Shown here: in pieces, positions 2,708 to 32,282 of the stretch
How the letters are laid out: every line of letters begins with the position of its first letter
Position numbering within the stretch: position 1 is the first letter of the stretch
DNA from: Candidatus Latescibacterota bacterium
GTDB lineage: Bacteria; Latescibacterota; UBA2968; UBA8231
Direction: 5' to 3'
DNA length: 64,000 nt
Assembly: GCA_965248355.1 (NCBI GenBank)
Contig: OZ252098.1
Span: forward strand, 1,952,001-2,016,000
Program-made: the position numbers and the translations under genes
Notes under the pieces: model-generated
What the model was told of the DNA's origin: nothing
The model's input: only the letters and a program-made list of their open reading frames with translations
Database searches by the model: none

Positions 2708-4600
2708 ATGCATCTCAGACGTATAGGCATCGCGGGCTCGGCGACGCTCCTGCTGCTCGCAGGAACCGCGAGTGCCCAGTTCCTGCACGCCGGCAACCCC
2801 GACGTCACGTCCCTTTCGGACATGACCAGCGGAGGCCCGCCGACCGTGTTGAAGATCGAAGGTTTGTCGAGCTTCCCCGACTATGCCTTCGACGGCTCCG
2901 ACCTCGATGTCAACTTCACCCTCGAAGGCAGCGGAGCCACCGTCTGGCTCTTCGTCTATACCTCCGGCCAGAACCCGCCTCTGACCATCGAGGGAGAGGG
3001 TGATCCTCCTTACAAGGATCCCGTGCGCAACCAGCCCGGCTGGCACGTGTACGAAGGCGTCGACTACCTCGTCTACAAGTCCGCCGGCGAGCGCATGGAC
3101 GAGGGCGAGAACACCATTACCTGGAACGGCCGCGACAACGCCGGCAACGTCGTCTCCGCCGGCGCCTACAGCCTGCACCTGGCCGCCTTCGACGACGAGG
3201 CCTTCCCCCACCTCGTGGCCGGCTCCGTCTTCCGCAAGCTCGGGCCGCCCGGGCGCCCTTACTGGGATCTCGGCCGGGAGCAGATCTTCGACTTCCGCTT
3301 CGTCAACGACATGAACAACGACTGGGTCGAGAACTTCGAGGGCTTCGACACGATGGATCTGACCGCCGTCACCGACGCCGGCGGCAGCACGCCGAACTCG
3401 GCTGTGTTCCTCAATGACGACTTCACCGAGGCCCTCGCCATCGGCCAGAGCAACTTCCTCGAGCGCCTCACCCTCGACTGGGACGCCAACCGCGTCTCCA
3501 CCGTCGAGGACTGGGGCGAGGACTACGGCGGCGTCAACGGCGTCATCAACGTCGAGGACCTCGGCGCCAGCGCCGGCCAACGGATGATCGCCACCAATCC
3601 CGACAAGACCATCGCCTATCTCGCGGCGGGCGTGACCGGTACGGTGGCGCAGATCGCTTCCTACTCCATCGAGACCGGTGAGAAGCTTGCCAGCTGGGAC
3701 ATGACCGATCTCTTCCTCTACGACAACAAGGGGGCCGACCGGGTCAGCGCGCCCATGGAGTTTGCCCAGTTCTACGACGGCGCTCCGGATCCCTGGGGGA
3801 TCACCACGACATCTCACCACTCCTCCGTGATCGCGCGCTTCGACTACGACGGCAACCTCAAGTGGGCCAACCGCAACGGTGACGGCTTCGGCGATACCCA
3901 GGCCTACAACAGCGCCGACGGCACCTTCGGGGACCTGGTCTACGGACATACCGAGGCGCCCAACTTCAAGTACTCCCTGTTCTCGGCCCCGGACGGATGG
4001 GTCTCGGTCTGCGAGAACGGCCGCGACAACACCAGCTTCGGCGCCATGCTCGGTCAGGACGGTTCCGGCCTGTTCAAGTTCGAGCCCAAGAACACGCCCC
4101 TCACCTGGTCGCAGTACGTCTGCATCGTCGACGGGGACACCGAGTGGGACGGTCTGCACATGCAGATCGGCGGCTTCGGCGACGCGATCCCGTCCAACGA
4201 CTGGGTCTCGAACGACGTCACCGTCTCGCCGACCCATCCCCTCGCCCACTATCCGTACGACCAGAAGAAAGTAAGTCTGGGGATGCCCACGGCCGTTGCC
4301 GAGGTGGGAGGGCAGGTGCCCGGTGGCTACGAGGTCAGCGACGCCTACCCCAACCCCTTCAACCCGGAGACCACGGTTCGCTTCTCCCTGCCCTGGGAGG
4401 TGGATGTACGGGTCACGGTCTACAACGAGCAGGGCCAGAAGGTGGCCACCTTGGCCGATGAGCGCCTGGGTCCGGGCAACTTCGACATCACCTGGGACGG
4501 CACCGATGACAGTGGGGCCGCCGTCGCCTCCGGTGTTTATCTGTATCGGATCGAGGCCCCCGATCTGCGTCTGAACAAGAAGGTCACCTTCCTCAAGTAG
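2708..4600 (+). CDS. Secreted protein with two FlgD-Ig-like domains and a T9SS type-A-like C-terminal domain
   Basis: GGAGA RBS before ATG 2708; signal peptide ending ASA-Q; internal ITWNGRDNAGNVVSAGAY; C-terminal AYPNPFNPETTVRFSLP...WDGTDDSGAAVASGVYLYRI...KKVTFLK. Confidence 0.8.
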   Translation: MHLRRIGIAGSATLLLLAGTASAQFLHAGNPDVTSLSDMTSGGPPTVLKIEGLSSFPDYAFDGSDLDVNFTLEGSGATVWLFVYTSGQNPPLTIEGEGDPPYKDPVRNQPGWHVYEGVDYLVYKSAGERMDEGENTITWNGRDNAGNVVSAGAYSLHLAAFDDEAFPHLVAGSVFRKLGPPGRPYWDLGREQIFDFRFVNDMNNDWVENFEGFDTMDLTAVTDAGGSTPNSAVFLNDDFTEALAIGQSNFLERLTLDWDANRVSTVEDWGEDYGGVNGVINVEDLGASAGQRMIATNPDKTIAYLAAGVTGTVAQIASYSIETGEKLASWDMTDLFLYDNKGADRVSAPMEFAQFYDGAPDPWGITTTSHHSSVIARFDYDGNLKWANRNGDGFGDTQAYNSADGTFGDLVYGHTEAPNFKYSLFSAPDGWVSVCENGRDNTSFGAMLGQDGSGLFKFEPKNTPLTWSQYVCIVDGDTEWDGLHMQIGGFGDAIPSNDWVSNDVTVSPTHPLAHYPYDQKKVSLGMPTAVAEVGGQVPGGYEVSDAYPNPFNPETTVRFSLPWEVDVRVTVYNEQGQKVATLADERLGPGNFDITWDGTDDSGAAVASGVYLYRIEAPDLRLNKKVTFLK

Positions 4601-4610
4601 GGAGGCCCCG

Positions 4611-4651
4611 GAGGTGCCGCCGGCTTGCTGCCGGCGGCACCTCTTTTTTTT
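4611..4651 (+). terminator. Rho-independent terminator
   Basis: Perfect 14-bp stem GAGGTGCCGCCGGC / GCCGGCGGCACCTC, 5-nt loop, then T8, starting 10 nt after the stop at 4600. Confidence 0.92.
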
Positions 4652-4764
4652 CCGGCGAGCGGCCTGCGGCGGCGAGTCGGTAGATCCCCGCGCCAGTGGA
4701 TTGCTGCCTCAGTCTCGCGGCAGGATCGACTGTCGATGATTCCCTTCTCCACACGAGGTAAACA

Positions 4765-6903
4765 GTGAAGATTGCCAGACACCCCGGCTGGGCGCGACCC
4801 CTGGCTGTCGCGGGACTCTTCCTGTGTTGTGGCGGTCTGTCCGCCCAGGACCTGTCCAGCGTCGGGATCTCCACCTGGCCCTCCACGACTCGCTATCTCG
4901 GCTTCCCCGAGTTCGCAGCCGGTCAGGACGGCCAGATCCGGATCACCGCCGGCGGGCCCTACACCCTCTACCTCAACGGCGATCTCGTGGGCAGTGACGC
5001 GGATCCCTCCACCGTGGAGATCTGGCCGGACCTCGCCTTCAAGAAGAAGGAGAACCAGGTAGCCGTGGTGGTCGACCACGACGGCACCCGGAGCCCGTAC
5101 GGCGCCTACCTCGTGATCGACGGCGAGGAAGAGCAGTTCATCAGCTCTCCCACGGACCGCTCCATGCCCTGGTTCTGGTCCGGCGACCCCCTGCCCAACA
5201 AGGAGGGCGGCTGGACCAAGCTGAAGCTGAGCAAGCTCGACGAGCACGAGGAGGACGGGCGGCTCATCACCTGGCAGGCGGCGCAGCAGGGAACCCTGGA
5301 ACCACGGGACTTCGTGGAGTTCGAGGACCTGGACCTGACCCGGGCCGGCAGCGTGGCCGGCTTCCCCGGAGGCCTGTCCGGTCAGGAGCAGGGGCTGCAG
5401 TTGCGCAGCCTGGTGGGCCAGAACATGGCCCTCAACTCCCGCACCTCCGACCCGAATCTCGTCGATGGCGACATCACCAAGGGCGTCGCCTTCCGCAAGG
5501 GCGCCGCATCCTTGGGCCAGGGGGTGGGCACCGACCTCGGCCGGCTCCTGCTCCTCGAGCGGGTGCGCGTCATCACCGAGCCGCCCGGCCGCAACGACAC
5601 CTACGAAGACCTCGCCATCAGGGGCTACAGCGTCCTGATCAGCCAGAACGGCATCAGCTACCGCGAGGCGGGGGCGCGCAATCAGATCAGCACCTACCGG
5701 GAGAGCGACGTCGTCTTCCCGCCGACTCCCGCCCGCCACGTGAGCCTGAGGATCACCGAGTTCTCCTCCCGGGACGCCAATCCAAGGATCGGGGAGCTGG
5801 AGGTCTTCGCCCAGGGGCGGGACGACGAGGGCCGATACCGCTCCCCGCCGCTGGATCTGAGCTCCTCCGAGGTCAAGAACTTCGAGCGCGCCATCCGCTA
5901 TGGAGAGGTTCCCGCCAACACGGAGATGGAGCTTCGCTTTCGTAGCGGCGAGGACGGGGAGAGCTGGAGCGAGTGGTCGTCCTGGGACTCGCAGTCCGAG
6001 GTCGGACTGACCGTGCCCGAGCCGCGGAACTATCTCCAGTTCGAGGCGCGCATGCTGAGCCGGATTCTCGACGCCACCCCTCGGCTCGACAGCCTGGTGG
6101 TCTGGTTCGAGGAAGGCCCCTTTCCGGCCTCTCGTGCTTCCGGCTCCATCTCTCCGGCTCGTGCCTCCATCGGCGTCGATACGCTGTTCACCTATACGCT
6201 GCAACTGGAGATGCAGGACACCGACACGGGTGTGGGACGGCTGGCCATCCTGACCTCCTGGCCGGCCCAACTCGATGTCGGCGCCGTGCAGGGTCTGGGA
6301 GAGGCGGCCATCGCCTCCAGCTACGCCACGGCCGACTCCCTCGTGCTGATCTTCGATCCGCCCATCACCTCGGCCACCGGAACGACGGAGGTGGTCATCC
6401 CCTTCACCACGCGGCTGCTCTCCGCCAGCCACGACTTCCAGGGGTTGCTCTTCGCTCCCGGGAGTGCGGCCTCCCTCCAGGTCGAGAGGCGGGAGGGAAC
6501 CGATCCACAGACCGAGCTCCCGTACACCTCCATCACCGAGGCGGCGGACTTCAGCATTCCCATCCTCGACCACGTGCGAGCCCAACCCGGGGTCTTCACC
6601 CCCAACGGAGACGGCGCCAACGACTTCGCGGTGCTGGCCTTCACCCTCGGGCGCGTCTCCGGGTCTTCGGTCCACTTCGAGATCTATGATGTCGGCGGAA
6701 GGTTGGTGCGCAGCCTGCCGCCGAGTCTTCTCGACCCCGGAAGCTACTCCCCCATCGGGGGCCGGGAAGAGGACCTGCCCGGACGATGGGACGGCCTGGA
6801 TGACGAGGGAAGGCTGGTGCCGCCGGGGCTCTACCTGTATCGAATCGTCGTCGATCTGGAACCGGACGAGGTGGCCACGGGCGTGGTCGGACTCGCCTAC
6901 TAG
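4765..6903 (+). CDS. Secreted multidomain protein (discoidin/F5-8C-like domain; C-terminal FTPNGDG type-B-like CTD/FlgD-Ig)
   Basis: GAGG RBS and GTG start; signal peptide; NLVDGD...DLGRLLLLERVRV...ARHVSLRI...IGELEVF is discoidin-like; C-terminal VFTPNGDGAND...IYDVGGRLVR...WDGLDDEGRLVPPGLYLYRI. Confidence 0.72.
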   Translation: MKIARHPGWARPLAVAGLFLCCGGLSAQDLSSVGISTWPSTTRYLGFPEFAAGQDGQIRITAGGPYTLYLNGDLVGSDADPSTVEIWPDLAFKKKENQVAVVVDHDGTRSPYGAYLVIDGEEEQFISSPTDRSMPWFWSGDPLPNKEGGWTKLKLSKLDEHEEDGRLITWQAAQQGTLEPRDFVEFEDLDLTRAGSVAGFPGGLSGQEQGLQLRSLVGQNMALNSRTSDPNLVDGDITKGVAFRKGAASLGQGVGTDLGRLLLLERVRVITEPPGRNDTYEDLAIRGYSVLISQNGISYREAGARNQISTYRESDVVFPPTPARHVSLRITEFSSRDANPRIGELEVFAQGRDDEGRYRSPPLDLSSSEVKNFERAIRYGEVPANTEMELRFRSGEDGESWSEWSSWDSQSEVGLTVPEPRNYLQFEARMLSRILDATPRLDSLVVWFEEGPFPASRASGSISPARASIGVDTLFTYTLQLEMQDTDTGVGRLAILTSWPAQLDVGAVQGLGEAAIASSYATADSLVLIFDPPITSATGTTEVVIPFTTRLLSASHDFQGLLFAPGSAASLQVERREGTDPQTELPYTSITEAADFSIPILDHVRAQPGVFTPNGDGANDFAVLAFTLGRVSGSSVHFEIYDVGGRLVRSLPPSLLDPGSYSPIGGREEDLPGRWDGLDDEGRLVPPGLYLYRIVVDLEPDEVATGVVGLAY

Positions 6904-6914
6904 GCTCGCCTGCT

Positions 6915-9641
6915 ATGAGGAAGAGGGTCCCCCTAGACCAATCCATGCGCGCTCCCGTCGCTCTCACCCTCCTGGCCCTGTTGGGATCCACTCCGGACCT
7001 GGCGGAAGGGCAGTTCCTGTCCCGGGACTTCCGCGGGCTCTGGGCCAACCAGATCTTCGAGAACTACGGGGCCGCGGGCTACCGGGACTACGACCTGGAA
7101 GAGGAGAACCGGCGCTTCGACCTCTTCGGCGATCTCCTCATCGACGGCGTGGACATCATCGAGTACAGCGAGATCCGGCGGGACGCCCCCGGCATCCGGG
7201 GCAGCTTCGAGACACGCAACGCCCGCTACGAGCGCTTCTTCAGGAAGCTTGTCATCGCCAACGAGGGGTTCGGCAACTGGTCCACCCGCCTGATCATAGG
7301 GGATCACATCCGGACCTTCTTCACCCCCATGACGCTGAACCTGCCCAACTACAACGGGATCCGCTGGGACGGCGCCTCCCGGAAGAGCCGCTTCAGCCTC
7401 ATCGCCAGCCACCTGCGGGATCCGGTGGTGCTGGGCGGGGGCCTCGCCGTGGACCAGAACATCGAGGAGCGCCGGATCTGGGGGGGCAGCCTCTTCGGCG
7501 TTCATTGGGAGAGCCAGATCGGCGGCCTGCTCAAGCTCGGAACCACCTACGTCAACCTGCATCGCTTCGACTCCGAGGCCACTGCCAAGGTCAACAGCCT
7601 CAAAGGGACGATACCCGGGGTCATGCAGGGGGGGCTTCGCAAGGTCTTCGTGTTCTTCTCCGACGACTCCCCCCACGACGCCTTCGCCGGCGCCGCGGTT
7701 CACGAGTTGACCCTGACCGTGGACGGCACACCGGTGATGCCCTTGCGGGTGGGTCGGATCGACGGCCTCATCAGCAAAATCCCGGTCACGCCCGATCCGA
7801 CCAGCACCGTCCTGCTCGAGCCCCACGAGGTCGACTACCTCCGCCGCAACCGCTCCTGGCTGCGCGCCGTGGTCGAGGCCAGCCGGGACCGGTTCTTCGC
7901 CTCCCTGCTGGACGACATCACCACCGACATCACCGCCGAGGCCCTCACCTCCCGCGGCGCGCCCCTTCGCGCCGACGGGAGCGACGTCATCTACTTCGAG
8001 TACGAGGTCCCCGACACGGTGAGCGGTATCGACTTCAGCGCTGTCCTCGCCGACGACTACAGCGTGGACGTCGTGGGGGCCATGCTGGTGCCGATCCTGG
8101 CTCCGGGCGAGGACGACTTCTATTACGACTGGTACAACGCCCGCCGCGCCAGGGGACGGCCCGGCCACGGGTCGAACCGGCACCGGGTCGACTTCCACTA
8201 CGGGTTCCCCACCGGGCTGACCATCGCCGGGCTCGACTGGGACCTCAAGGCACTGGGGTTCCACCTCCAGGGGGAGTTCGCTCGCAGCCTGCGCTTCCTC
8301 CAGGTTCCCAACCGCAAGGCCAAGCGTCACCGCCGGGAGAGCTCGACCTTCTACTTCCGCCTCACCCGCCCCGTGCGCGAGCGGACCGAGCTCGGTTTCG
8401 AGTACTTCGACGTGCCCGACGACTACACCACCGAGTTCCCCCTCTTCCTGACCCAGCGCACCACGAAATCGGTCGGCGGCAGGCTCTACACGCCCTTCGC
8501 CCTCGTGGAGGACAACGACGATCTCGACTTCTGGCCGGACCGGGTGGAGCACAACGATCCGCTGGCGCCGTACGCGGACCCCCTGGGCAGTCAGTTCGGC
8601 CATCCCGGAAAGGGGGTCTACCCCGGCCTGGATCCGGACGACGACGGGGTCTTGGACTACAACCTGGACCTCGAGTTCGGCTCCGATTCCAGCCAGCCCT
8701 TCCTCGGCTACTACTCGGAGCCGTCCGGCCTGGTCTACGGCGACGACTTCGACAACAACGGGGTCGTCGACTACCGCGAGAACGACAACCTGCCGGACTA
8801 TGCCTATCCCCTCGACCACCGCGGCTTCCACGCCTTCGGTACCGTGGGGTTGAGCGCCCGGACCCAGATGCGGGCGGGGTGGTACAGGGTACGCCAGCCG
8901 GTCGTGGGAGGCCGCAACAACACCCAGTACGTCGAGGGGCAGTACCGACGGGACTGGGCGGGCCTGGGGTACCTGCGGTTGAACCACCGTATCAAGTGGA
9001 TGGAGGACGACATCCGCAACACGGTCTTCCGGTTCGGCAGCGTCGGCTCGCTCAATCCGGACCGCCTGGGGAGCCGGGACACGGTCAGCAACTTCACCTT
9101 CTTCGAGACCGGCCTGATGGCCGTGCCCGACGTCAACCTCCGCAACATCATCACCTTCGGCTTCTCGGAGCTGGCCGGGCGTCCCGTGGCCGATCCCTTC
9201 CTGACCATGCCGGGCCGATACACCGGTATCTCGGTGATGAACAAGATCGACTACACTTGGAGGCGCGGCCGGCTGACCGTTCTGCCCCAGTTCAAGCACA
9301 TCTACTACCGCAGCACCTCACCGGAGCGCCACCTGCCCTCTTCGCAGAGCCGCCAGGTCATACCGATTCTGCGCGCCGACTACCAGTTGACCCCCAGGAC
9401 CGAGCTCAGGACCGGCATCCAGGGGTTCCCCTTCTGGCGCGAGAAGACCACCTACGCGGTCCGGCCCGAGAGCCAGTACACGCGCCTGACCTACACGGCG
9501 ATGATCCAGAACCGGAGCAACTACCTGGGCTACGACTTGGTGCTGCTCATGGGCACGTACCGCAGCGAGGTTGACTACTCCGGATCCGACCGGCCGGGCA
9601 ACGGTTTCCTGCAGTATTTCTTCAGGATCTTCATCGGCTGA
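6915..9641 (+). CDS. Uncharacterised large exported protein, putative outer-membrane beta-barrel (paralog 1 of 3)
   Basis: Signal peptide; many alternating hydrophobic/aromatic strands; Asp-rich loop; terminal strand QYFFRIFIG. The start may be the second Met at 6945. Confidence 0.6.
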   Translation: MRKRVPLDQSMRAPVALTLLALLGSTPDLAEGQFLSRDFRGLWANQIFENYGAAGYRDYDLEEENRRFDLFGDLLIDGVDIIEYSEIRRDAPGIRGSFETRNARYERFFRKLVIANEGFGNWSTRLIIGDHIRTFFTPMTLNLPNYNGIRWDGASRKSRFSLIASHLRDPVVLGGGLAVDQNIEERRIWGGSLFGVHWESQIGGLLKLGTTYVNLHRFDSEATAKVNSLKGTIPGVMQGGLRKVFVFFSDDSPHDAFAGAAVHELTLTVDGTPVMPLRVGRIDGLISKIPVTPDPTSTVLLEPHEVDYLRRNRSWLRAVVEASRDRFFASLLDDITTDITAEALTSRGAPLRADGSDVIYFEYEVPDTVSGIDFSAVLADDYSVDVVGAMLVPILAPGEDDFYYDWYNARRARGRPGHGSNRHRVDFHYGFPTGLTIAGLDWDLKALGFHLQGEFARSLRFLQVPNRKAKRHRRESSTFYFRLTRPVRERTELGFEYFDVPDDYTTEFPLFLTQRTTKSVGGRLYTPFALVEDNDDLDFWPDRVEHNDPLAPYADPLGSQFGHPGKGVYPGLDPDDDGVLDYNLDLEFGSDSSQPFLGYYSEPSGLVYGDDFDNNGVVDYRENDNLPDYAYPLDHRGFHAFGTVGLSARTQMRAGWYRVRQPVVGGRNNTQYVEGQYRRDWAGLGYLRLNHRIKWMEDDIRNTVFRFGSVGSLNPDRLGSRDTVSNFTFFETGLMAVPDVNLRNIITFGFSELAGRPVADPFLTMPGRYTGISVMNKIDYTWRRGRLTVLPQFKHIYYRSTSPERHLPSSQSRQVIPILRADYQLTPRTELRTGIQGFPFWREKTTYAVRPESQYTRLTYTAMIQNRSNYLGYDLVLLMGTYRSEVDYSGSDRPGNGFLQYFFRIFIG

Positions 9642-9642
9642 C

Positions 9643-12456: not shown

Positions 12457-12460
12457 CCCC

Positions 12461-15400: not shown

Positions 15401-15616
15401 GATCTGGCGCAGCCGGAGAACGACTTCGAGCAGTACGACTACGTGCTCATGCTGACGAACAACTCCAAGTACTTCGGCTACATCCTCTCCACCAATGCCG
15501 GCCTCAGCCGCAGGCACAGGGTCTTCGACGACCCGGCCGTGGCGCAGGTCAAGGACGAGAAATTCACGGCGGTCTTCATCAACGTGATCCTCGGCTTCGA
15601 GGAGGAGACCTACTAG
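12461..15616 (+). CDS. Uncharacterised large exported protein, putative outer-membrane beta-barrel (paralog 3 of 3)
   Basis: Signal peptide ending LLLLAPATA-D; same motif series (LRSKFTPLTF, VEDNDDNDRYPD, GVFPGLD, IDEREND, NNSKYFGY); ends AVFINVILGFEEETY. Confidence 0.6.
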   Translation: MRAGITKSADRRRAGLQGSRHHSALSSLWSWPLFGVLLLLAPATADEEKEDRPEHPALGPVRLIPDQPFIGRIGRQTYQNYGFEDYSRRPVATSNLSNRYNYLGDPLVYGTQSIRWVESRGLGTSRGYSSVSEGGAHGTGRGGTDYAPPGGSFANLFNYVMVGSDGTDTWQARAIYANELRSKFTPLTFKMSNVDGLRLDVGTEHDRFSALFSNLTPTGGGFIVPTTMLGAHYERRVGFLNFGASFVNAHQYEHQMSNRHQSFKGSVGNIQRPTAMVAIRISDGSPQDGRDGPVLHGVKVYINGELRPEADPFLIRLNRRGDARTTYVAGLLDEGKDNERRRPLETDYQTVNKGAVFNSFAVYINYAAFDTDAYYRGYDFPFFIDHLYYRDFARFGPDHEYEEGVTVHNQFAHELSEPDGAFALATEADLPQAFDGEEYAVVYVDLEPFQEQINSVDIDLELSRDYHVEVSEIDLAGKPHDPRAVNPRDRYNYAGFFRTVASAPGNSRSDNIERVRVKVGASTGLSLYSANVYGVFKGFEIDGEFSRSHSYYQYASGIPGPRVYPTGGGQTVNALLREENPGARSSIDDDAYYLTVKRDFRSFGVGAEVFSMGAHFNTELRSHIGRSEVNFGNPVVYNNTYLHRLVEDNDDNDRYPDTWYTNRPFIWNGQSDLDGVFPGLDEDNDGVPDTNRDFDATPDYLEPFLTYDVDPQIFDYGLDLNHNDYIDERENDLQPDLPYDPGLRGRHVYGTFKPIRGARMTLGLLDAEQIAAGDPNEFLYARLGYERRIPSLGRFQGSLFTERVRDGVEDPLSVYSDEVLTAAEQLRREFGGFQRNIRISPFLEVPREDPLLFKNSTFSRIFVDARWTTLPGLNIHNKVKYEINQQLDGELYDGTLQEGRTLSRWAMVHRLDYLWPIQPKLSLFSGLKYRFLREWQTGDVTTQHERHIIPILKLNYDLTLRTRLQFGVEGLGTLLPYSVVDLAQPENDFEQYDYVLMLTNNSKYFGYILSTNAGLSRRHRVFDDPAVAQVKDEKFTAVFINVILGFEEETY

Positions 15617-15618
15617 GG

Positions 15619-18600: not shown

Positions 18601-18867
18601 GACTCGGCCGAGGCTGTCGGGCCGAGCGATTACTACCGCCAGGCGATCGAGGTGTTCGAGGACGTCATCGCCAAGTACCCGGAGACGGAGAGCGAGATCG
18701 GAGCCCTGAGCAACATGGGCGTCTGCCTGGAGGAACTGGGCAGGTGGCAGGACGCCGTCGGGGTTTACGACCGCGTCATCGGCCTTTTCGAAGAGAAGCG
18801 AGCCACCCGGGAGGCCTTCCAGTTCGCCAAGGCCCACCGGGACTGGATTGTGAGCGCCCGGCTGTGA
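15619..18867 (+). CDS. Large tetratricopeptide-repeat (TPR) protein, ~1082 aa
   Basis: ATG 2 nt after the upstream stop; short hydrophobic N-terminus; many TPR units (AYYNTGWAYY, SLFQIGECH, QYNMAWCL, AQFTFGDHAY, LIEEFPG). Confidence 0.85.
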   Translation: MGLTLFLTVLAATGTYLATRTPTEGELVSSFQEAQRFYAEGAYDQAISEYANVSRVRSRVLAVNQVQVVVGEESFPLQEAAAYQIGNAYSKLYEEYDRFAEESRNALRRSEYRAQADTSFARAIGAFRQVIASAANEILKVQAHGRLIDLYFSAEAYPDVIIASREMIAAYPDNPHVVVAYYNTGWAYYETRRFARAIESFQALLSRFSTGYRADRSLFQIGECHRERGEYEEAIESYRRLVERQRIGELTDEELLQMKREKLAGLVDETALELAAKAEIRVGTCFTSLGRFDEGLAAYQRVISLFSTERQLVEEAFLRLADLHQARGDEAAALRTYREAIDESQDRTLRARIQYALAERLFSQGAYERAIQEYRIYLQGYGDIALSAGFSEGRVRYRVGSGYQQLAQPHLQAGDGIAAASWLNLAIAQYDTLCADPNSPYFLDSQFNRAVAFQSLGTPGAMARARGEYETIIDGAGDELYLQRSLGQLAELLYDLGEYEGAVERSRQLLREFPGTDYADEAYMRIGLGHQASGELEPAAEAFLQVAPDSPFFVRSRTGAGHVLLSERRYADAIPVLQAGLAEAEAPAQQGSLHYLLGQAYNGEGEYAQAVVQFTEALARPMGPRLVEALRLNRGSAALAAGDLAQGEEDLLWVVSNVTDPERVRYAQDALAFSYVRRDRGADAARILEEMVIAAPTVEQRADLLNRMLDLYYEEESYSQTIEAARRLLALDFDDKAVSRGGYGTKEKAYFILGDALMRLDRGSEAVRTFREALRAYPGSPFALDIRLTLGAFHFAEGELDQARSLFQDLSGVDLTEEQALLVSFYLANTHYSLREFEEARILFQGLLDENPGVRELPDILFGVAESNYQLGAFDRAIGHYRRLIEEFPGETAADDSQYNMAWCLIELERQEEAMAAFRQLLDRYPRSEYAASAQFTFGDHAYNLGRYQDAMEAYLLVQQRYPDAEITAEVPRLVAELKEAIAYERYEQGIALMDSAEAVGPSDYYRQAIEVFEDVIAKYPETESEIGALSNMGVCLEELGRWQDAVGVYDRVIGLFEEKRATREAFQFAKAHRDWIVSARL

Positions 18868-18891
18868 CCAACTCCCATTCGTGAGGACCGC

Positions 18892-19452
18892 ATGGTTTCG
18901 ATAGATTACCGTTATCTCTTTCTCCTGGCCCTCACCGGGACGCTGCTGACCGCAGGCGGCCCGGGATTGGCTCAGGAGCCGGAGGAGAGGTTCCAGGTAC
19001 GCGAGCAATCCGCCTCCAGGAAGCAGGCCGTGGCCCTCGCCGTGGCCTTTCCCGGACTCGGTCACCTGGCCACCGGACACCGGGAAAAGGGGACCGCCCT
19101 CGTGACCGCCGAGATACTCGGCCTCGTGATATGGCTGACGTCGCACGCCGACTACAAGACCCAGTCCGAGCAGGTCGACGTGGAGAAGATCCGCTACGCG
19201 TCGATTCGAGAGGGCGGAACCCACGATGAGGCGGAGGAGAGCTGGCGGCGTCTGAACAGCCTGAGGGAGGATGCCGACGGCTCGCACCTGCGGCGGCGCC
19301 TCTTCGGGGTCCTCGCCATCGGCGTGTACGGGTACAATCTCCTCGATGCCCTGCTCCTGGGGGGGCTGGAGCCGCCCGGCGGCGGACGCGTCGGTCTGGT
19401 GCCCTCGGCGACTCCGGACCAAGCGGGGCTGGCCCTTGTGGCCCGCTTCTGA
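18892..19452 (+). CDS. Hypothetical exported/membrane protein (DUF5683-like)
   Basis: GAGGA RBS; signal peptide; AVAFPGLGHL motif, hydrophobic helices, YNLLDAL, C-terminal strand ending in F. Confidence 0.55.
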   Translation: MVSIDYRYLFLLALTGTLLTAGGPGLAQEPEERFQVREQSASRKQAVALAVAFPGLGHLATGHREKGTALVTAEILGLVIWLTSHADYKTQSEQVDVEKIRYASIREGGTHDEAEESWRRLNSLREDADGSHLRRRLFGVLAIGVYGYNLLDALLLGGLEPPGGGRVGLVPSATPDQAGLALVARF

Positions 19453-19477
19453 GGCGAGACGAGAGAAGGGAGTCCAG

Positions 19478-19864
19478 ATGGTGAGAAGAGCGGGTTTGAG
19501 CGTCGTCCTGGCCGGGGTGGTTCTCGTCTGGTCATGCAGCGACGACATCGAGCTGCCCACGGCCTATCACGAAGGATACCTGTCGCAACCCTCGGAAGTG
19601 ACCTCCGCCGTGGAGGACGGCGCCATCAATGTCTCCTGGAGCATGGCCTCCGAGGCCGACGTCGAGGGGTTCGTCGTCGGTTTCACGGACTCCAGCGGAG
19701 CCGAGCACACGAGGTCCATCGAGGATCCGGCGGCGAGACTTCACTCGGAGCAGGAGTTGGGCGTCGGCCCGGGCACCGTCTACTTGATCCAGGTGTGGGC
19801 CTTCGATGCGAAGGGGTACTTCGGCCCCCGGTCGGAGGTCGACACCCTGGCGGTCCAGGAGTGA
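19478..19864 (+). CDS. Lipoprotein with a fibronectin type III-like domain
   Basis: GGAG RBS; lipobox-like VWS-C; FN3 pattern INVSW...GFVV...GTVYLIQVWAFD..G..GPRSE. Confidence 0.7.
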   Translation: MVRRAGLSVVLAGVVLVWSCSDDIELPTAYHEGYLSQPSEVTSAVEDGAINVSWSMASEADVEGFVVGFTDSSGAEHTRSIEDPAARLHSEQELGVGPGTVYLIQVWAFDAKGYFGPRSEVDTLAVQE

Positions 19865-19913
19865 CCTGACCGGATGACCTCGGCGCCACCGACCGGAGCC
19901 ACAGGCGGAGAGC

Positions 19914-21146
19914 ATGGCTGAGTCGCAACGCTTCCGCGCTCCCAGTGACGGCCTCGACCTGCAGGGCCTCTGGCGCGAGACCGTCAACTACACCGTCCGC
20001 GGGCTTCTCATCGGTTTCGTGGCGGTGACGGGGGCTCTGCTGTACCTGGTGCTGAGGGTCGAGGAGAGGGCGGCTCCGGAGCCGGCGGTGACCCGGCTCA
20101 TCATCCGCAAGCCCAGATCGACCAAGTCCTTCACCCTCAAGCGGCAGCGCCTCCGCCCGCGGGCCCTGACCAAGCAGGTCACGGCCCTGACCCCCCGGCT
20201 CTCCCTGCCCTCGGCCCGCCGGCTGGCCGGACCCTCCGTCTTCGGTACGGTCCAGAGCTTCGATTACGCGCCGGACACGGACGTGCAGATCAACCTCCAG
20301 TCCGGCCCCATCGAGTTGTCCGCCGCCACCATCCGGGGCACGAAGGAGCCGGGCAAGCGCATCGCCATGCGCGAAGAGCTGATCGACCTGAACGCCCTGG
20401 ACACCGGGAAGTACAAGGGGCTCATCATCCAGGATCCGACGGACCGGCGCAATGTCAAGGGGTTCGTCTATCTGGGTACGGCCTGGGCCAACGATCTGGA
20501 GCCGACCTTCGACAGCGCCGCCCGCGCCATTCCCAACCTCGTGGACGCCCTCAACGCCCAGACGGGGATCACCGCCAAGGTGGACGCCCACCTCTTCCTC
20601 GACTCCCAGGAGCTCTTCCGCACGCCCTTCGTGTACGTCACGGCCGAGGAGGCTTTCGAGCTGACGGAGCGGGAGCTGCGTAACCTGGGAGAGTACCTGA
20701 GGCGGGGGGGATTCATATTCGTCGACAACGCCACGCCTCTGACCGAGTTCAGCCAGGGAGAGGCCTCCCTGCGCCGGATCTTCCGGGACGCCCTCGGAGC
20801 CGAGGGCCAGTTGCGGCCCATCTCCAACAACCACCCCATCTACCACACCTTCTACGACTTCGACGGCCCTCCGGTGGGCACGGAGATGGAGAACCCCACC
20901 TTCACCCAGCAGCGGGAACGGGACTACCTCGTCTTCGCCCAGCAGACCTACTATCTCGAAGGCGTATTCCTGGGGGACCGGCTGGTGGGCGTTTACTCGG
21001 ACAAGGGGTACGTCCACATGTGGGCGCGAAACTTCGGCAACGAGCCACAGTTGAGGTTCGGGATCAACGCCGTCGTCTTCGCCCTGACCCAGGAGGGCTC
21101 CATCGCGCAGCAACAGATCGATTTCTTCAGCCAGCGCACCCAGTGA
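19914..21146 (+). CDS. Membrane-anchored DUF4159 domain protein
   Basis: N-terminal TM helix, basic linker, then AIPNLVDALNAQTGI, PFVYVT, LGEYLRRGGFIFVDN, HPIYHTFYDF, RFGINAVVFALT. Confidence 0.75.
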   Translation: MAESQRFRAPSDGLDLQGLWRETVNYTVRGLLIGFVAVTGALLYLVLRVEERAAPEPAVTRLIIRKPRSTKSFTLKRQRLRPRALTKQVTALTPRLSLPSARRLAGPSVFGTVQSFDYAPDTDVQINLQSGPIELSAATIRGTKEPGKRIAMREELIDLNALDTGKYKGLIIQDPTDRRNVKGFVYLGTAWANDLEPTFDSAARAIPNLVDALNAQTGITAKVDAHLFLDSQELFRTPFVYVTAEEAFELTERELRNLGEYLRRGGFIFVDNATPLTEFSQGEASLRRIFRDALGAEGQLRPISNNHPIYHTFYDFDGPPVGTEMENPTFTQQRERDYLVFAQQTYYLEGVFLGDRLVGVYSDKGYVHMWARNFGNEPQLRFGINAVVFALTQEGSIAQQQIDFFSQRTQ

Positions 21147-21160
21147 GAGAGAGGGTGGCC

Positions 21161-21937
21161 ATGCGTTCAGTCATTCCATCGCTGCTGATCCTCAGTGGCT
21201 GCAGCCATTTTCAACCGGAGGCGATCCTCTACTCGAACGAGCTGGTCCCCAGTTCCTACCAGGCCAGCGAGGATCGGTACACCGTCGACGAGGACGGTGC
21301 CGTCACCTACGTTCTGGAGGGACTCCGCGTCCGGGTGGAGCCCATGGAGGACGACGAGCTCAGCGCGATCTTCCCCGAGGAGTCGACGCGCGGCCAGTTC
21401 TCCACCAATCCCTATACATACGGAGACTGGATCGATCCGCTTGTCGGGCACACGCCCAAGCGCTTTACCGTCTTCCGCGTCACGATCATCAACGACATCT
21501 ACGCCAAGGTGCTGCTCGATCCGATCAAGGCCATGCTGTACACCGATCAGGGAGAGGTTCTTCATGCCTACGGTCTGCCCTCGGTCTCTCCCCACAACAG
21601 CTTCGAGCGCTACTACCGGGCCATCCGGGGACAGAGCGGCAACGAGTTCTACCGCTTCGACCTGCGCATGGGGAACGTGCGCAGCACGGCCTATCTCGAG
21701 GATGTGAGGGTGTTCAAGGGCGAGAGCTACTCCGGCCTGCTCGCCTTCGACCCCCTGAACGAAGAGGTGGGGCAGGTCAGACTGACGCTGAGGGACTTCG
21801 TGACCAAGTTCGACGCTTCCGGTCAGCCCATGGAGACGGTGGACATCTCCATGGAGTTCGACCAGGAGATCGAGAGAAGAGTAGCGCCGCGAACAGCGGC
21901 GAGGCAGGTACCGCCGAGCGGTGACCAGGCTCCCTAG
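21161..21937 (+). CDS. Hypothetical lipoprotein
   Basis: GAGGG RBS; lipobox LSG-C; beta-rich C-half (FTVFRVTIIN...GESYSGLLAF) reminiscent of DUF4352-like Ig folds. Confidence 0.65.
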   Translation: MRSVIPSLLILSGCSHFQPEAILYSNELVPSSYQASEDRYTVDEDGAVTYVLEGLRVRVEPMEDDELSAIFPEESTRGQFSTNPYTYGDWIDPLVGHTPKRFTVFRVTIINDIYAKVLLDPIKAMLYTDQGEVLHAYGLPSVSPHNSFERYYRAIRGQSGNEFYRFDLRMGNVRSTAYLEDVRVFKGESYSGLLAFDPLNEEVGQVRLTLRDFVTKFDASGQPMETVDISMEFDQEIERRVAPRTAARQVPPSGDQAP

Positions 21938-22844
21938 ATGGATCCCGGCGATCGTCCTGGGCGCTGCCTTCGGGCCGGGCGGAGCCGGGGAGATCGTTCA
22001 CCCGCCGCCCCTGAGCATCGCCCTGCTCGACTTCGAGGATCTGGCGGGCTTTCAGGGCAGCTGGACCCTGGCCCGGGACATACCCGAGTTCCTGGGCCGA
22101 CACCTCGACGGAGAGGATGCCTTTGACGTCGTGCCCCCGCAGCGCGTGGTGGAAATCCAGGCGGACCCCCGCCTCTCGGGGCTGGAGGGCCGGGACCTGG
22201 CGGTGGCGGCCGGTCGTCTGCTGGACGCCGATATCGTCATCCGAGGGGTCGTGGAGACCTTCGGCATGCGTCGGGTCACCGCGGGAGATCCGAATCTGGC
22301 GGGATACAAGTCCTACCGTTCGCGCGTTCACATCGAGGATGTGGAGGTGATTCGCGTGGCCACGGAGCAGGTCCTGGGAACTGTCGCGGCGAGCCGGGAC
22401 TCCACGGAGACCCCCCTCGGCCTGGATCTCTTCGGCCGCCCGCGCAGGCAGGATCGCGAGTTCAGGGAGCTCTTCCACCTCGACTTCGGCTCCGAGCGGT
22501 TCTACGAGTTGCCACTGGGCATGGCGGCCGACGCGGTCTTCGAGGAGTTGCGCAGAGAGATCGCCGCCGTGCTGATCGATCGTCCGGCCATCGATCTGAC
22601 GAGTGACAACGCCGTGGTCCTGGCCGTGGACGAGGACGAGGTCTTTCTCGGGATCGGGGTCGACGACAACGTCGAGTACGGAGACCTGCTGCCCCTCTAC
22701 CGGGATGGCCTTCGCGTGGCCCTGGTGAAGGTCAGCGAGGTGATCGGTCCCCACCTGAGCAAGGCGACGATCGTCGACGGCGACCAGGTGGAGACGGGAT
22801 CCAGGATCGGTCAGCGCCTCTCGAGGACCGGAGATGTGGAGTGA
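21921..22844 (+). CDS. Exported CsgG/TolB-N-like protein with a FlgT-C-like C-terminal domain
   Basis: Signal peptide; SIALLDFED...FDVV...AAGRLLDADIVIRGVV; C-terminal VLAVDEDEVFLGIGVDDNVEYGD...VKVSEV...SKATIV. Confidence 0.55.
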   Translation: MTRLPRWIPAIVLGAAFGPGGAGEIVHPPPLSIALLDFEDLAGFQGSWTLARDIPEFLGRHLDGEDAFDVVPPQRVVEIQADPRLSGLEGRDLAVAAGRLLDADIVIRGVVETFGMRRVTAGDPNLAGYKSYRSRVHIEDVEVIRVATEQVLGTVAASRDSTETPLGLDLFGRPRRQDREFRELFHLDFGSERFYELPLGMAADAVFEELRREIAAVLIDRPAIDLTSDNAVVLAVDEDEVFLGIGVDDNVEYGDLLPLYRDGLRVALVKVSEVIGPHLSKATIVDGDQVETGSRIGQRLSRTGDVE

Positions 22845-22921
22845 GCACTGCCTTTGAAGTATCCAATTCCAGAATTCACGCGGTGAGCTGAGAGCTCCGA
22901 CAGCGAGAAGGAGACGGACAG

Positions 22922-23665
22922 ATGTGGGAGGTCATTCAGAGCGGTGGACCCCTGATGGTTCCACTGGCCGCTTGTGCCATCCTGGCCATCGGTTATTCCA
23001 TCGAGCGATTCTGGGTCTTCAGCCAGTTGCCCTCGCACGAGGACGCCCAGGAGAACCTGGAGCGCCTCGAGCACGCCCTGCGGGACGGCGGCGCGGCCCG
23101 GGTCGTGGCGGAGTGCAATGAAGGCAGAGGGTTGCTGAACTTCGTGTTCGCCTCGCTCCTGCGACGCTACGACACTCTCAGGATCGAGCAGCAGGAGTTC
23201 AAGGAGACCAACGAGGAGATCATGCGTCTGGCCCAGGCCGGCGGCGGCGGCGAGGTCAGCCGGTTCATGGTGCTGCAGCGAGAGCTGACCGACCTCAAGG
23301 ACGAGCTGGTCATCGAGACCGAGGAGTCCGCCCGGTCCTATCTCGGCAAGCACCTGCCGATCCTGAACACGATCGGAAACATCACCCCCCTCATCGGGCT
23401 CCTCGGAACGATTCTGGGCATGATCATCGCCTTCGAGTCGATCGCCGTGGCCGGCGCCGGTGATCCCAGGGTCGTGGCCGGAGGCATCTCTCAAGCACTG
23501 GTCACGACGGCATCGGGCCTGATCATCGCCATTCCGACCATCGTTGCCTACCGCTACCTGGCCCGCCGAGCCGACAAGATGCTCGAGCACGTGGAGATGT
23601 ACGGCCACGCCTTCGCCAATGCCCTGATCACCACGGGCCAGCGACAGGAGGCCGCCGGACAGTAG
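22922..23665 (+). CDS. exbB: MotA/TolQ/ExbB proton channel protein
   Basis: GGPLMVPL...SIERF; TPLIGLLGTILGMI; GGISQALVTTASGLIIAIP. Confidence 0.9.
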   Translation: MWEVIQSGGPLMVPLAACAILAIGYSIERFWVFSQLPSHEDAQENLERLEHALRDGGAARVVAECNEGRGLLNFVFASLLRRYDTLRIEQQEFKETNEEIMRLAQAGGGGEVSRFMVLQRELTDLKDELVIETEESARSYLGKHLPILNTIGNITPLIGLLGTILGMIIAFESIAVAGAGDPRVVAGGISQALVTTASGLIIAIPTIVAYRYLARRADKMLEHVEMYGHAFANALITTGQRQEAAGQ

Positions 23666-23680
23666 GTCGGCGCGCAGACC

Positions 23681-24094
23681 GTGGGCAGACACCGCACACG
23701 ACCGGGCTTCGCCGACGAAGGAGGGCCGGATCTCGCTCCTCTCATCGACTGCGTCTTCCTGCTGCTCATCTTCTTCATGGTGACCACCGTCTTTCTGCAC
23801 ACCAAGGGCCTCGAGGTGGACATGCCGGCCAAGAGCGAGGCCACCGAGGAGCAGAAGAAGGACATCAACATCGTTCTCGACCGCGACGGCAAGATCCAGA
23901 TCAAGGGAGAGGAAGTAGCTCCCGACCAGTTGGCCGCCCGTCTCGTGACCGCCATGGAAGAGGCCAACAACGAGAACATCATCATCCAGGGGGATGGCGA
24001 CTGCCCCCAGGAGCACGTGGTCTACGTCGTGGATACGGCCAAGAGCGTGGGAGTGGTGGGAATCGCCTTCGCCAGAGAGCAGGAGGAGGAGTAG
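23681..24094 (+). CDS. exbD: ExbD/TolR family protein
   Basis: LAPLIDCVFLLLIFFMVTT TM segment with the conserved Asp; periplasmic IIIQGD domain. Confidence 0.88.
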   Translation: MGRHRTRPGFADEGGPDLAPLIDCVFLLLIFFMVTTVFLHTKGLEVDMPAKSEATEEQKKDINIVLDRDGKIQIKGEEVAPDQLAARLVTAMEEANNENIIIQGDGDCPQEHVVYVVDTAKSVGVVGIAFAREQEEE

Positions 24095-24097
24095 AAA

Positions 24098-24508
24098 TTG
24101 CCGAGACACCGGTCCGTGTACGAGGAAGATTCCATGGACATGACGCCGCTCATCGACTGCGTCTTCCTCCTGCTGGTGTTCTTCATGGTCACCACGGTGT
24201 TCAAACAGCCCTACAGCCTGCAGGTCGAACTTCCCGAGGCGACGCAGGCGCAGGTGGTGGAAGAGAAGAAGCTGGTGGCGTCGATCACCGCGGACGGCCG
24301 CATGGAGATCAACCGCCATCCCGTGACCTTGGAGAACCTCGAGCAGGTGCTTCAGCGCGAGAAGGTGGGGACCCGCAGCCTGACCCTGGTGGTGCGGACC
24401 GACAAGAAGACCAAGCATCGGCACCTGCTGGACCTGTTCGAGGTGGCCAAGCGCGTCGGGATCGAAAAGATCCCCTTGGCGACGGACAACTTCAAAGAGG
24501 ACGACTGA
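24098..24508 (+). CDS. exbD: ExbD/TolR family protein (second copy)
   Basis: GGAGG RBS, TTG start; MTPLIDCVFLLLVFFMVTT; VELPEA; LVVRTDK. Confidence 0.88.
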   Translation: MPRHRSVYEEDSMDMTPLIDCVFLLLVFFMVTTVFKQPYSLQVELPEATQAQVVEEKKLVASITADGRMEINRHPVTLENLEQVLQREKVGTRSLTLVVRTDKKTKHRHLLDLFEVAKRVGIEKIPLATDNFKEDD

Positions 24509-24690
24509 CCTCCCGCACCGGCGCCACGGCCGCTCCGCGTCCGACCCCAGGGGTCGTTGCGTCCACCCAGGATCTTTCGCGCTCCCCGTCTCTACACCGA
24601 CGGAACCGTGGAGCTCACGGCGCGGGACCGAGCCCCGGCGCGGGCGCCTCCCGGCCCGGGAGCTCACCGGACCCCTGAAGGAGGGAGGAC

Positions 24691-32121: not shown

Positions 32122-32282
32122 GCCGGGTCTACGCCTGCCTCGAACGGATGACCGCTATCGGCCCGAGTCGGGCGGAGTATCCGATATGAAGAGTGCGTCG
32201 GATCGACTCCCGGCATGTTCGCGCTGCCAGGTCGCAACGACGGATCCCGGAGGGGCGCCCGGCCCGGTGATCGGTCCGTCCG

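Follow-up and report, generated by a model that had tools for sequence, protein, structure and literature searches.

The 64-kb window analysed here, positions 1952001-2016000 of a Candidatus Latescibacterota genome assembled as a single contig of 5,503,661 bp (95.7% complete, 4.18% contamination), carries at positions 2708-24508 a cluster of 14 genes that very probably encodes a functional ExbBD-coupled trans-envelope unit, in which an ExbB/ExbD-type motor would be linked to three giant outer-membrane barrels (B1 to B3), a large tetratricopeptide repeat (TPR) protein, lipoproteins and secreted proteins. Our preferred reading, to which we give a probability of roughly 0.45, is that the unit is a motor-energised importer of polymers, encoded in loci that resemble polysaccharide utilization loci (PULs). 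To our knowledge, only a few ways of spending inner-membrane energy at the outer membrane have been described, namely Ton, Tol, flagellar stators, the motors of the type IX secretion system (T9SS) and gliding, and Agl-Glt, and the phylum Latescibacterota is known only from metagenomes. A full-text search, mostly of literature outside subscription journals, found nothing on an outer-membrane system of the motor-linked giant-barrel kind in this phylum; the part of Youssef et al. (2015, PMC4454575) available to us assumes porins and TonB for Latescibacteria.

Since the window is GC-rich (64-75%), genes were called by third-position GC, which is 0.81-0.92 in the frames of all 14 genes (Table 1). 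As the initial annotation had stated, the genes are co-directional and the gaps from position 4765 onward are shorter than 80 nt; specifically, g1 and g2 are 164 nt apart and all later junctions measure at most 77 nt, several being 1-4 nt or overlapping. A consensus scan, of limited value for the host phylum, found no sigma-70-like promoter match within 5000-24900 and two terminator-like sites where 6.9 were expected. Pfam matches, and the transmembrane (TM) helix of g9, confirmed the predicted TPR protein of about 1080 aa, the DUF4159 membrane protein and exbB with two exbD. Searches of the 14 proteins against Pfam and NCBIfam gave no match to the SusC/D, Plug, TonB_C, TolA/B, Pal or GldKLMN families, the absence of SusC/D, TolA/B, Pal and GldKLMN from the cluster having been noted at the outset, and none to OmpA_C, TolB beta-propeller or SLH domains.

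Table 1. Genes of the cluster and its upstream context (positions in the 64-kb window)
Feature	Position	Strand	Description
g1	2708..4600	+	Secreted, ~630 aa; T9SS type A C-terminal sorting domain; N-terminal ~550 aa without known family
g2	4765..6903	+	Secreted, 712 aa; weak discoidin (F5/8-C) region and Ig-like C-terminal domain
B1	6915..9641	+	Giant outer-membrane barrel, 908 aa, position-1 orthogroup
B2	9643..12456	+	Giant outer-membrane barrel, 937 aa, position-2 orthogroup
B3	12461..15616	+	Giant outer-membrane barrel, 1051 aa, position-3 orthogroup
TPR protein	15619..18867	+	1082 aa, short hydrophobic N-terminus; presumed periplasmic scaffold
g7	18892..19452	+	Small exported/membrane protein, conserved FPGLGQ motif, sub-threshold DUF5683-like
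g8	19478..19864	+	Lipoprotein, ~128 aa, weak fn3-like fold
g9	19914..21146	+	Bitopic inner-membrane DUF4159 protein; candidate force transducer
g10	21161..21937	+	Lipoprotein, 258 aa, family without name; most constant barrel partner
g11	21921..22844	+	Exported protein, 307 aa; CsgG/LpoB/FlgT_C-like lead only
ExbB	22922..23665	+	ExbB/TolQ-type proton channel subunit; PF01618 2.1e-28
ExbD1	23681..24094	+	ExbD/TolR-type subunit 1; PF02472 1.5e-27
ExbD2	24098..24508	+	ExbD/TolR-type subunit 2; PF02472 4e-31
Upstream context, possibly associated	1..2507	+	Transglutaminase-like protein (extends past the window start) and CBM9-like protein

The gene order recurs in other genomes. A pattern scan with one genome per species yielded 448 stretches, of which 435 were confirmed, and the best 80 gave 65 loci, labelled by their depositors as Latescibacterota/Latescibacteria (44), Gemmatimonad (16) and other (5); the locus counts are lower bounds, as many loci end at contig ends or at the 10-kb flank. 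B1 and B2 are adjacent in 60/65 loci, g2-B1-B2 occurs in 55, B1-B2-B3 in 42 and g2-B1-B2-B3-TPR in 25. On the inner-membrane side, g9 is present in 52 of the 65 and adjacent to g10 in 40, the run g9-g10-g11-ExbB is found in 15, and the whole order g1 to g11 is retained in 10. Upstream of g1, a transglutaminase-like gene stands in 14/65 loci and a CBM9-like gene in 4/65. This synteny, together with the paralogy of whole loci within the genome, rules out a chance co-location of unrelated genes. Within the phylum, the barrel profile was found in 106 of 168 genomes, including all 75 genomes of the family to which the host belongs and 30/31 genomes of nine other families, and was absent from four families (0/3, 0/22, 0/31 and 0/5).

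In the host genome, 27 open reading frames (ORFs) match each barrel query (51 match segments), and the ORF map shows five full loci and about eight reduced ones. The full loci are locus A (this window), B (genome positions 1574657-1592826), C (549760-573453), D (151243-169510) and E (495682-514192, which also bears a DUF4159 gene); each has g1-g2-B1-B2-B3 followed by the TPR gene, g9 and variable accessories. Reduced loci consist of one to three g2-like genes and one or two barrels, often with a g10-like lipoprotein. In a quick IQ-TREE analysis of 24 barrels (two halves split by an insertion sequence at 2469-2473 kb and the ORF at 361201-362532 were left out of the 27), the barrels at positions 1, 2 and 3 of loci A to E formed three separate clades with SH-aLRT values of 100, 100 and 98, each with the inner topology ((A,B),C,(D,E)), and the eight barrels of reduced loci grouped together in a further clade. 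The triplet therefore arose before the duplications of the loci, and the three barrels are therefore not interchangeable, which would be expected if they form a hetero-oligomer. Between loci A and C, identity is 30% for g1, 33% for g2, 35%, 37% and 34% for B1, B2 and B3, 37% for the TPR protein, 46% for g9, 53% for g10, 69% for ExbD2 and 71% for ExbB; judged by this gradient, the outer parts appear to diversify while the motor is kept. Two copies differ in other ways. Locus B, besides having no g7, g8 or g11, has a gene for a BamB/PQQ-type beta-propeller after ExbB in place of ExbD (genome 1592842-1594068), and at genome 2469301-2473399, on the - strand, a barrel gene lies in two half-size frames (478 and 445 aa) around a Mutator-family transposase gene (PF00872, 5e-36) and looks like a copy disrupted by an insertion sequence.

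The three large proteins, initially annotated as paralogous putative outer-membrane proteins, are indeed related to one another by BLASTP (B1-B2 8e-78, B2-B3 1e-63, B1-B3 1e-32), and they match no Pfam family at E<=10 and no NCBIfam family at E<=0.01. That they might be ordinary TonB-dependent receptors was rejected, as they contain no Plug domain (PF07715), for which the model has 21 matches at other places in the genome; they are likewise no known T9SS parts. With the synteny described above, neither of the two observations that the initial annotation would have taken as a refutation was made. An AlphaFold2 model of B2, built from a 47-sequence alignment (mean pLDDT 77.8, pTM 0.77), has about 23-24 strands, the long ones lying between residues 103 and 933 (counted in the DSSP string), a beta-sandwich insert at residues 218-399 after the sixth long strand, and long connections that all occur at every second turn. 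Residues 490-636 form a D/N-rich segment with invariant Ca-loop-like motifs, and the N-terminal residues 32-101 are conserved in sequence, yet have pLDDT <50.

Searches with Foldseek and VIA-align returned large barrels only as neighbours of B2, the nearest being SlpA of Deinococcus (7zgx; VIA Z 16.4, rmsd 7.1, 361 aligned residues; Foldseek E 1.4e-8, TM-score 0.22), followed by the ushers FimD (Z 11.5) and PapC (Z 11.3), both with rmsd in the range 5.2-6.5, and by TonB-dependent receptors, LptD and SprA (Z ~9-10.6), of which the receptors, with their barrels of 22 strands, are generic barrel neighbours (Z ~10, rmsd 5-12). Compared with SlpA (7zgx, 8ae1), the proteins of the cluster show no SLH domain, no coiled-coil stalk and no significant sequence relation, and B2 differs in its low TM-score and its 23-24 strands; SlpA is trimeric, and a B1-B2-B3 trimer is therefore thinkable. 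No SlpA_C domain (PF21620) was matched in B1 to B3, and three barrel homologs reached 20-27 bits against a cut-off of 35. Ushers have a plug between strands 6 and 7, and the predicted B2 insert lies after the sixth long strand; the Pfam Usher model has no match in B1 to B3, and no chaperone or pilin genes are present. The likeness to ushers and to SlpA is generic or sub-threshold, and membership of either family is improbable. An ESM Atlas lead from B2 to DUF6029 (0.89) fell below the trust line of the tool. A B2 profile found nothing significant among PDB sequences (best E 0.49, an unrelated protein). Among 70 homologs of B2, those with a named organism came from Candidatus Latescibacterota/Latescibacteria (six) and from 'Gemmatimonadetes' metagenome-assembled genomes (two), and all are called 'hypothetical protein'; in 1.84 billion representative proteins the barrel profile found 884 at E<=1e-3, 633 at 1e-10 and 294 at 1e-30. 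The barrels thus constitute a small, lineage-restricted and new family that is distinct from TonB-dependent receptors. At the junction of B2 and B3, in the region of the B3 N-terminal leader (12488-12590), 101 nt are exchanged for 107 others in contigs of two RNA libraries (X17 and X18), a strain difference.

ExbB and both ExbD proteins score below the equivalog cut-offs of the NCBIfam ExbB/ExbD and TolQ/TolR models, with slightly higher scores against TolQ/TolR than against ExbB/ExbD. The two ExbD proteins are 32% identical and both keep the TM Asp of the motif PLIDCVF. The TPR protein matches 21 TPR-type Pfam families and 22 NCBIfam families at E<=0.01, the latter including YbgF/CpoB-type repeats (TIGR02795) in six stretches, with partial BamD-like and PorW/SprE-like matches besides; no gliding Glt model is among the NCBIfam matches at that threshold. 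Full-length paralogs of it are present in loci B to E and at two more sites. These features, namely the TolQ/TolR-like motor and the CpoB-like repeats, together with outer-membrane lipoproteins and the LpoB/TolB-N-like or CsgG-like lead for g11, are shared with Tol-Pal, and a role in envelope maintenance, in which the system would stabilise the outer membrane in the manner of Tol-Pal or tie abundant giant porin-like barrels to the cell wall in the manner of SlpA, could also draw on SlpA being the best neighbour of B2 and on the sub-threshold SlpA_C scores. We consider such a role improbable. The cluster has no TolA, TolB, Pal/OmpA_C or SLH, all Tol matches are below equivalog cut-offs, and five full and eight reduced diverging copies, a lineage-restricted distribution with absence from whole families, and a link with degradative genes and T9SS cargo would all be unexpected for a housekeeping function.

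The protein g9 matches DUF4159 (4e-30) and has one N-terminal TM helix (residues 31-49). In an alignment of 57 sequences, an invariant cytoplasmic RFxxPxD motif precedes the TM helix, which is variable; then come a short stretch of AP(P)P, a basic segment that is conserved and, from residue 143 to the end, a highly conserved part. An AlphaFold2 model from 26 sequences shows a helix at residues 16-47, a segment (50-199) with pLDDT <50 and an alpha/beta head. The head superimposes on the crystal structure of Hoch_4089 from Haliangium ochraceum (4i66) with VIA Z 21.6, rmsd 2.0 and 25% identity over 181 residues (Foldseek E 1.9e-11); the next-best neighbours are ThuA/GATase1-like proteins at Z ~9, and no vWA entry is in the neighbour lists, which were obtained with a model of pLDDT 56. 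As modelled, g9 thus has the layout of TonB or TolA, with a TM helix, a disordered linker of about 150 aa and a globular head, and its predicted head is a different one. The initial statement that TonB is missing therefore holds in that no TonB_C was found in the 14 proteins, and needs amending in that g9 is TonB/TolA-shaped and, as described below, lipoproteins of sister loci bear a TonB_C-like domain of the GltG/GltJ type. In loci B and C g9 adjoins ExbB, and in a locus at 234-240 kb it adjoins TPR-ExbB-ExbD. DUF4159 occurs in 71/71 sampled genomes of the class, with one or two copies in the barrel-less families and 3-11 in the barrel-bearing family. A short stand-alone DUF4159 protein (genome 2129992-2130567), which scores 229 bits against the Pfam model, far above g9, has orthologs in every sampled genome of the class, the barrel-less families included, and may represent the ancestral form of the head domain. 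In the literature search, DUF4159 was mentioned only in a Pfam release paper and Hoch_4089 nowhere. SxxxH in the TM helix was confined to a few distant paralogs with DUF4159, and a scheme of two types (g9 with SxxxH, long g10 and no local motor, as against g9 with RFxxPxD, short g10 and a local motor) was not borne out by a tally of the loci, in which the ExbB column is unreliable because ExbB often lies past the 10-kb flank.

Both lipoproteins of the initial annotation were confirmed by a conserved lipobox Cys, which in g8 orthologs is part of a Cys-Ser-Asn/Asp-Asp lipobox and in the g10 family is invariant and directly followed by a conserved linear motif. The g10 family has 10 paralogs in the genome, reduced loci included, and 587 relatives, none of them named; no Pfam, NCBIfam or PDB match was found, the PDB having been searched with a g10 profile. 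In loci D and E, and in three related loci of other genomes (L087, L077 and L054), the g10 homologs are about 400 aa long and end in an AgmX/PglI domain (NF033768, 49-62 bits, cut-off 40), which also gives weaker GltG, GltJ and TonB_Cterm matches; this domain has no match in g9, g10 or g11 of the window. The remaining small proteins gave slighter signals. For g7, DUF5683 was matched at 1.7e-4 (22 bits, below the cut-off of 26.7), and the gene is found in 33/65 related loci with one paralog in the genome, in locus C; g8, with a sub-threshold fn3 match (E 0.003), is found in 27/65. The earlier description of g11 as CsgG/FlgT-like survives as a lead only, in that g11 clusters with CsgG/LpoB/FlgT_C in the ESM Atlas at 0.93-0.94; Pfam, NCBIfam and PDB sequence searches returned nothing, and g11 is present in 19/65 loci.

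At the level of architecture, the cluster resembles the Agl-Glt/Nfs machinery of myxobacteria, since both combine several outer-membrane barrels and a TonB-like coupler with a TPR protein of very large size and a motor of one TolQ-like and two TolR-like subunits. The barrels GltA, GltB and GltH are much smaller and OmpA-like. A system of this type would be a surface-transport or export machine, its motor moving or rotating a barrel platform to deploy, move or assemble surface material, such as g1/g2 adhesins or a polysaccharide or glycoprotein layer, with each paralogous locus serving a different surface polymer. The parallel with AglRQS, GltD, GltG/J and GltA/B/H, as drawn from the accessible part of Luciano et al. 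(2011, PMC3169522), extends to a TPR protein of more than 1000 aa and to the number of barrels, three; further support comes from the AgmX/PglI domain of GltG/GltJ on the sister-locus g10 homologs, from the myxobacterial origin of the nearest solved DUF4159 structure, from PMT_2+TPR proteins of GT-C type beside three reduced loci and an exopolysaccharide cluster downstream, and from g1 and g2 being surface cargo. That part of the article defines a 'core complex' of aglRQS, gltD, gltE, gltG and gltC with no known function outside myxobacteria and, for the Glt barrels, refers to nothing beyond an OmpA-like fold and an autotransporter beta-domain. This alternative is the main rival of the importer reading, and the differences make it less probable in our view. 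In the NCBIfam search at E<=0.01, the TPR protein showed no homology to GltC, GltD or GltE and matched no gliding_Glt family, though the GltG/GltJ models respond to relatives of g10; the barrels, at 900-1050 aa, differ in size and family; the coupler has a DUF4159 head, and the TonB_C-like domain is borne, in sister loci, by a lipoprotein instead of a TM protein. In addition, genes for a synthase, an MglA/MreB-linked protein or an AglZ-like protein are missing from the locus, and thirteen loci in one genome, whose outer parts evolve fast, suit receptors better than motility. Degradative enzymes and putative importers dominate the flanks, and the loci are linked to T9SS cargo.

A second parallel concerns the inner-membrane half alone. 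Modules comprising a TPR protein, a TolQ-like protein, two TolR-like proteins and a vWA-headed transducer, found in silico and of unknown function, are described by Williams-Jones et al. (Mol Biol Evol 2025, PMC12204202), and in the part available to us they have the same module logic, transducer layout and gene order as the g9 locus. Here, by contrast, the head is DUF4159 and the SHLS/His motif is missing from this type of g9; giant barrels, the g10 lipoprotein and T9SS cargo are not described in the available part of that article, and 'DUF' occurs 0 times in its main text. The claim that the system matches no named one thus stands for the outer-membrane half and has to be qualified for the module of motor, TPR protein, two ExbD and transducer, which resembles those in the accessible parts of PMC12204202 and PMC3169522; published work offers an in-silico counterpart to this module and none to the barrels or the g10 lipoprotein.

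Secreted proteins with a C-terminal sorting domain (CTD) had been predicted, and this proved correct for g1, which scores 28.6 bits with TIGR04183 (cut-off 23), 28 bits with CHU_C and 2.1e-19 with FlgD_ig. In g2 itself, F5_F8_type_C, CHU_C and FlgD_ig are all sub-threshold, but its four tested paralogs pass CHU_C or FlgD_ig, and one of them has NedA-like galactose-binding/F5_F8 matches. A signal-peptide-like sequence starts at the second Met of g1, which has paralogs over its full length in loci B to E and, in a PDB sequence search, no relative outside the CTD; the same search found nothing significant for g2. The g2 family has 27 ORF-level paralogs in the genome, with mainly the C-terminal ~300 aa in common; its members always adjoin barrels, and at least one g2-like gene stands in every barrel locus. 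Such linkage, and the presence of SprA among the distant structural matches of B2, would suit a T9SS analogue or obligatory accessory, in which the barrels secrete or attach the neighbouring CTD proteins and ExbBD replaces GldLM, all the more as type B CTD cargo is known to pair with PorP/SprF-like barrels. However, the genome encodes a canonical SprA at 427-433 kb (606 bits summed) and about 70 other proteins with the same CTD distant from any barrel; the core parts SprA/Sov, GldK/L/M/N and PorV are not encoded in the cluster, and the best PorV-like match in the genome (158 bits, cut-off 250) lies outside it. SprA was also found in 41/41 sampled genomes of the class, including the barrel-less families f2, f3 and f4, so that the T9SS is independent of the barrels. 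The T9SS analogue named as one option by the initial annotation is therefore very improbable. Anchoring of g1 and g2 on the barrels is compatible with, and part of, the importer reading.

Besides SprA, the genome holds a canonical ExbB-ExbD-TonB operon, with the only TonB_C match (PF03544, at 2229876), and the 21 Plug receptors, but no SusD (PF07980; 0 matches in the 95.7% complete genome, with a control match in B. thetaiotaomicron); the motor-barrel system is thus additional to canonical Ton, to the Plug-domain receptors and to SprA. It nonetheless resembles Ton in its motor of the ExbB/ExbD family, in a bitopic protein whose TM helix is joined to a head by a disordered, Pro-containing linker, in its many-copy large barrels, and in reduced loci devoid of a motor of their own; TonB-dependent receptors likewise borrow TonB. 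It differs in that g9 has a DUF4159/GATase1-like head in place of TonB_C and no SxxxH, in that the barrels match neither Plug nor TonB_dep_Rec, exceed TonB-dependent receptors in size, bear big loop inserts and form a conserved triplet, and in its two different ExbD proteins, its own TPR protein and its lipoproteins. In its manner of working only, it can be likened to the SusC/SusD PULs, since the paralogous loci pair a barrel with surface binding proteins beside polymer-degrading enzymes and inner-membrane transporters and the outer parts evolve faster; here, in contrast, no barrel is a SusC-type TonB-dependent receptor, the surface proteins are T9SS cargo and not lipoproteins, motor genes are inside the loci, and few classical glycoside hydrolase (GH) families are found. 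The initial annotation had left a non-Sus importer and a gliding-type motor side by side. We favour import on several grounds: copies are numerous and diverging, the surface proteins are lectin-like, neighbouring genes are degradative or serve transport, reduced loci could share motors, and SusD is absent.

From the gene content, conservation, paralogy and folds given above, we infer contacts, a direction of transport and a substrate as follows. The 14 genes would encode one trans-envelope machine of three modules. An inner-membrane energy module would comprise a pentamer-type ExbB channel, a heterodimeric ExbD1/ExbD2 plunger, the TPR scaffold and g9, and an outer-membrane module would consist of the non-redundant B1, B2 and B3, probably as a hetero-oligomer, with g10, g7, g8 and g11. 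The surface module would be formed by g1 and g2, exported via the ordinary T9SS and held at the barrels, the g2-type proteins carrying lectin-like domains. The substrate captured by these surface proteins would be large, most likely a fragment of a glycan or of another polymer; protons flowing through ExbB/ExbD would cause g9 to pull on the conserved N-terminal segment of a barrel or on g10, so that the barrels open and the substrate passes to the periplasm, from where polytopic membrane proteins encoded nearby (the DUF6785 family, ABC systems) would carry it onward. Full loci would supply the motors, and reduced loci, with a g2-like gene, a barrel, a g10-like lipoprotein and a SurA-like chaperone, would borrow them. 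Tentatively, the system may represent a third solution for energised outer-membrane uptake, in which a plug-less B1-B2-B3 hetero-oligomer with lectin-like loaders displayed by the T9SS is driven by an ExbB-ExbD1-ExbD2 motor through a transducer with a GATase1-like head and a lipoprotein, and in which PUL-like loci of this kind replace SusCD.

Several observations weigh against the importer reading. The neighbour enrichment reported below is biased, since its seed genes were chosen near barrels, and families with 3/3 members near barrels weigh little; classical GH families are rare in barrel loci; PMT_2+TPR proteins of GT-C type adjoin three reduced loci, and a Wzx/Wzy/GT4/Wzz/Wza cluster lies 4 kb downstream of the cluster. 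The proposed inner-membrane carrier DUF6785 has no PDB relative, and neither DUF6785 nor DUF6784 was named in any paper retrieved by the full-text search. Locus B lacks both ExbD and g10. Gating of the barrels is conjecture because no plug was recognised and residues 32-101 of B2 are unmodelled. The g9 model is weak (mean pLDDT 56), and g9 of the window lacks SxxxH in its TM helix, the docking motif of TonB, TolA and the published vWA transducers; among loci holding both g9 and g10, 36 of 38 g9 copies have RFxxPxD and no SxxxH. Expression, by contrast, offers a hint in favour: 20 of the 24 public runs listed contain part of 14601-24600, and four are metatranscriptomic libraries from two studies. 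When 4601-24600 is divided into 30 bins, contigs of these libraries, with a likeness of 95-99%, cover 20-25 of them and include one of 6674 nt over 18185-24600 and one of 5579 nt over 11242-16445; some bins, e.g. 5935-6601 and 8603-9269, are uncovered in all runs or in most, and some joints have short sides of 21-25 letters. Expression of the locus by a close relative is thereby weakly suggested, as such contigs prove neither transcription nor a single transcript and DNA may be present in such libraries. Two of the four libraries (X19 and X20) are labelled 'sponge metagenome' in their records, with shares of 0.21 and 0.19, at most a hint of habitat.

The flanks of the cluster within the window consist, upstream, of the transglutaminase-like and CBM9-like genes and, downstream, of genes for two unknown proteins and another CBM9-like protein, followed by the Wzx/Wzy/GT4/Wzz/Wza cluster. 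The CBM9-like (DOMON-type) proteins, at 1593-2507 and 27246-28055, bracket the cluster and are 41% identical; nine paralogs are present in the genome, only these two near barrels. The two co-directional genes after ExbD2 (24691-25863 and 25847-27259, 182 nt gap) encode proteins of 390 and 470 aa that match no Pfam family, the first with two paralogs in the genome. The polysaccharide biosynthesis/export cluster at 28188-37376 contains a Wzx-like flippase, a Wzy_C O-antigen-ligase-like protein and GT4 glycosyltransferases on the + strand, and a Wzz/GNVR chain-length determinant and a Wza/SLBB exporter on the - strand. Just upstream of the window (genome 1949552-1951501) is a polytopic membrane protein with DUF6785 and DUF6784 (1.3e-131), a candidate transporter family that is expanded (26 paralogs in the genome) and unstudied; also upstream are an FG-GAP/ASPIC-TPR protein, a PcRGLX-like protein of 1323 aa and a second DUF4159 protein.

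At the other barrel loci, the flanks contain DUF6785/6784 and PcRGLX-like proteins, GDSL esterases, a GH43/32-like fragment, GlcNAc-2-epimerase-like, DUF4838 and BNR proteins and an FGE-sulfatase, as well as an ABC sugar-binding system, FG-GAP/ASPIC proteins, long SurA-like peptidyl-prolyl isomerases (PPIases) and PMT_2+TPR proteins. In the zone up to 15 kb from a barrel, which makes up 8.0% of the genome, we found, of all paralogs, 8/11 ASPIC, 6/6 SurA-like PPIase, 8/26 DUF6785, 3/3 PcRGLX-like, 3/3 GDSL, 3/3 PMT_2+TPR and 2/9 CBM9 proteins. The SurA-like PPIases (490-570 aa), which occur only beside barrels (genome positions 2154571, 2820544, 4398057, 4460285 and 5399180, and one more), may be dedicated chaperones for the giant barrels.

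With 13 loci in one genome, the system adds to the known energised envelope machines a motor set with a different coupler head and a new outer-membrane half, in which the barrel family counts 884 relatives and the lipoprotein family 587. If the importer reading is true, it would account for polymer capture in an FCB-group member that has no SusD, and would provide a new marker gene set for studies of glycan cycling. If the system instead proves to be a transporter of the Glt/Nfs kind, it would give the widespread 'core complex' a long-sought function and outer-membrane partners. Under either reading, the role of ExbBD/TPR modules that lack TonB becomes testable.

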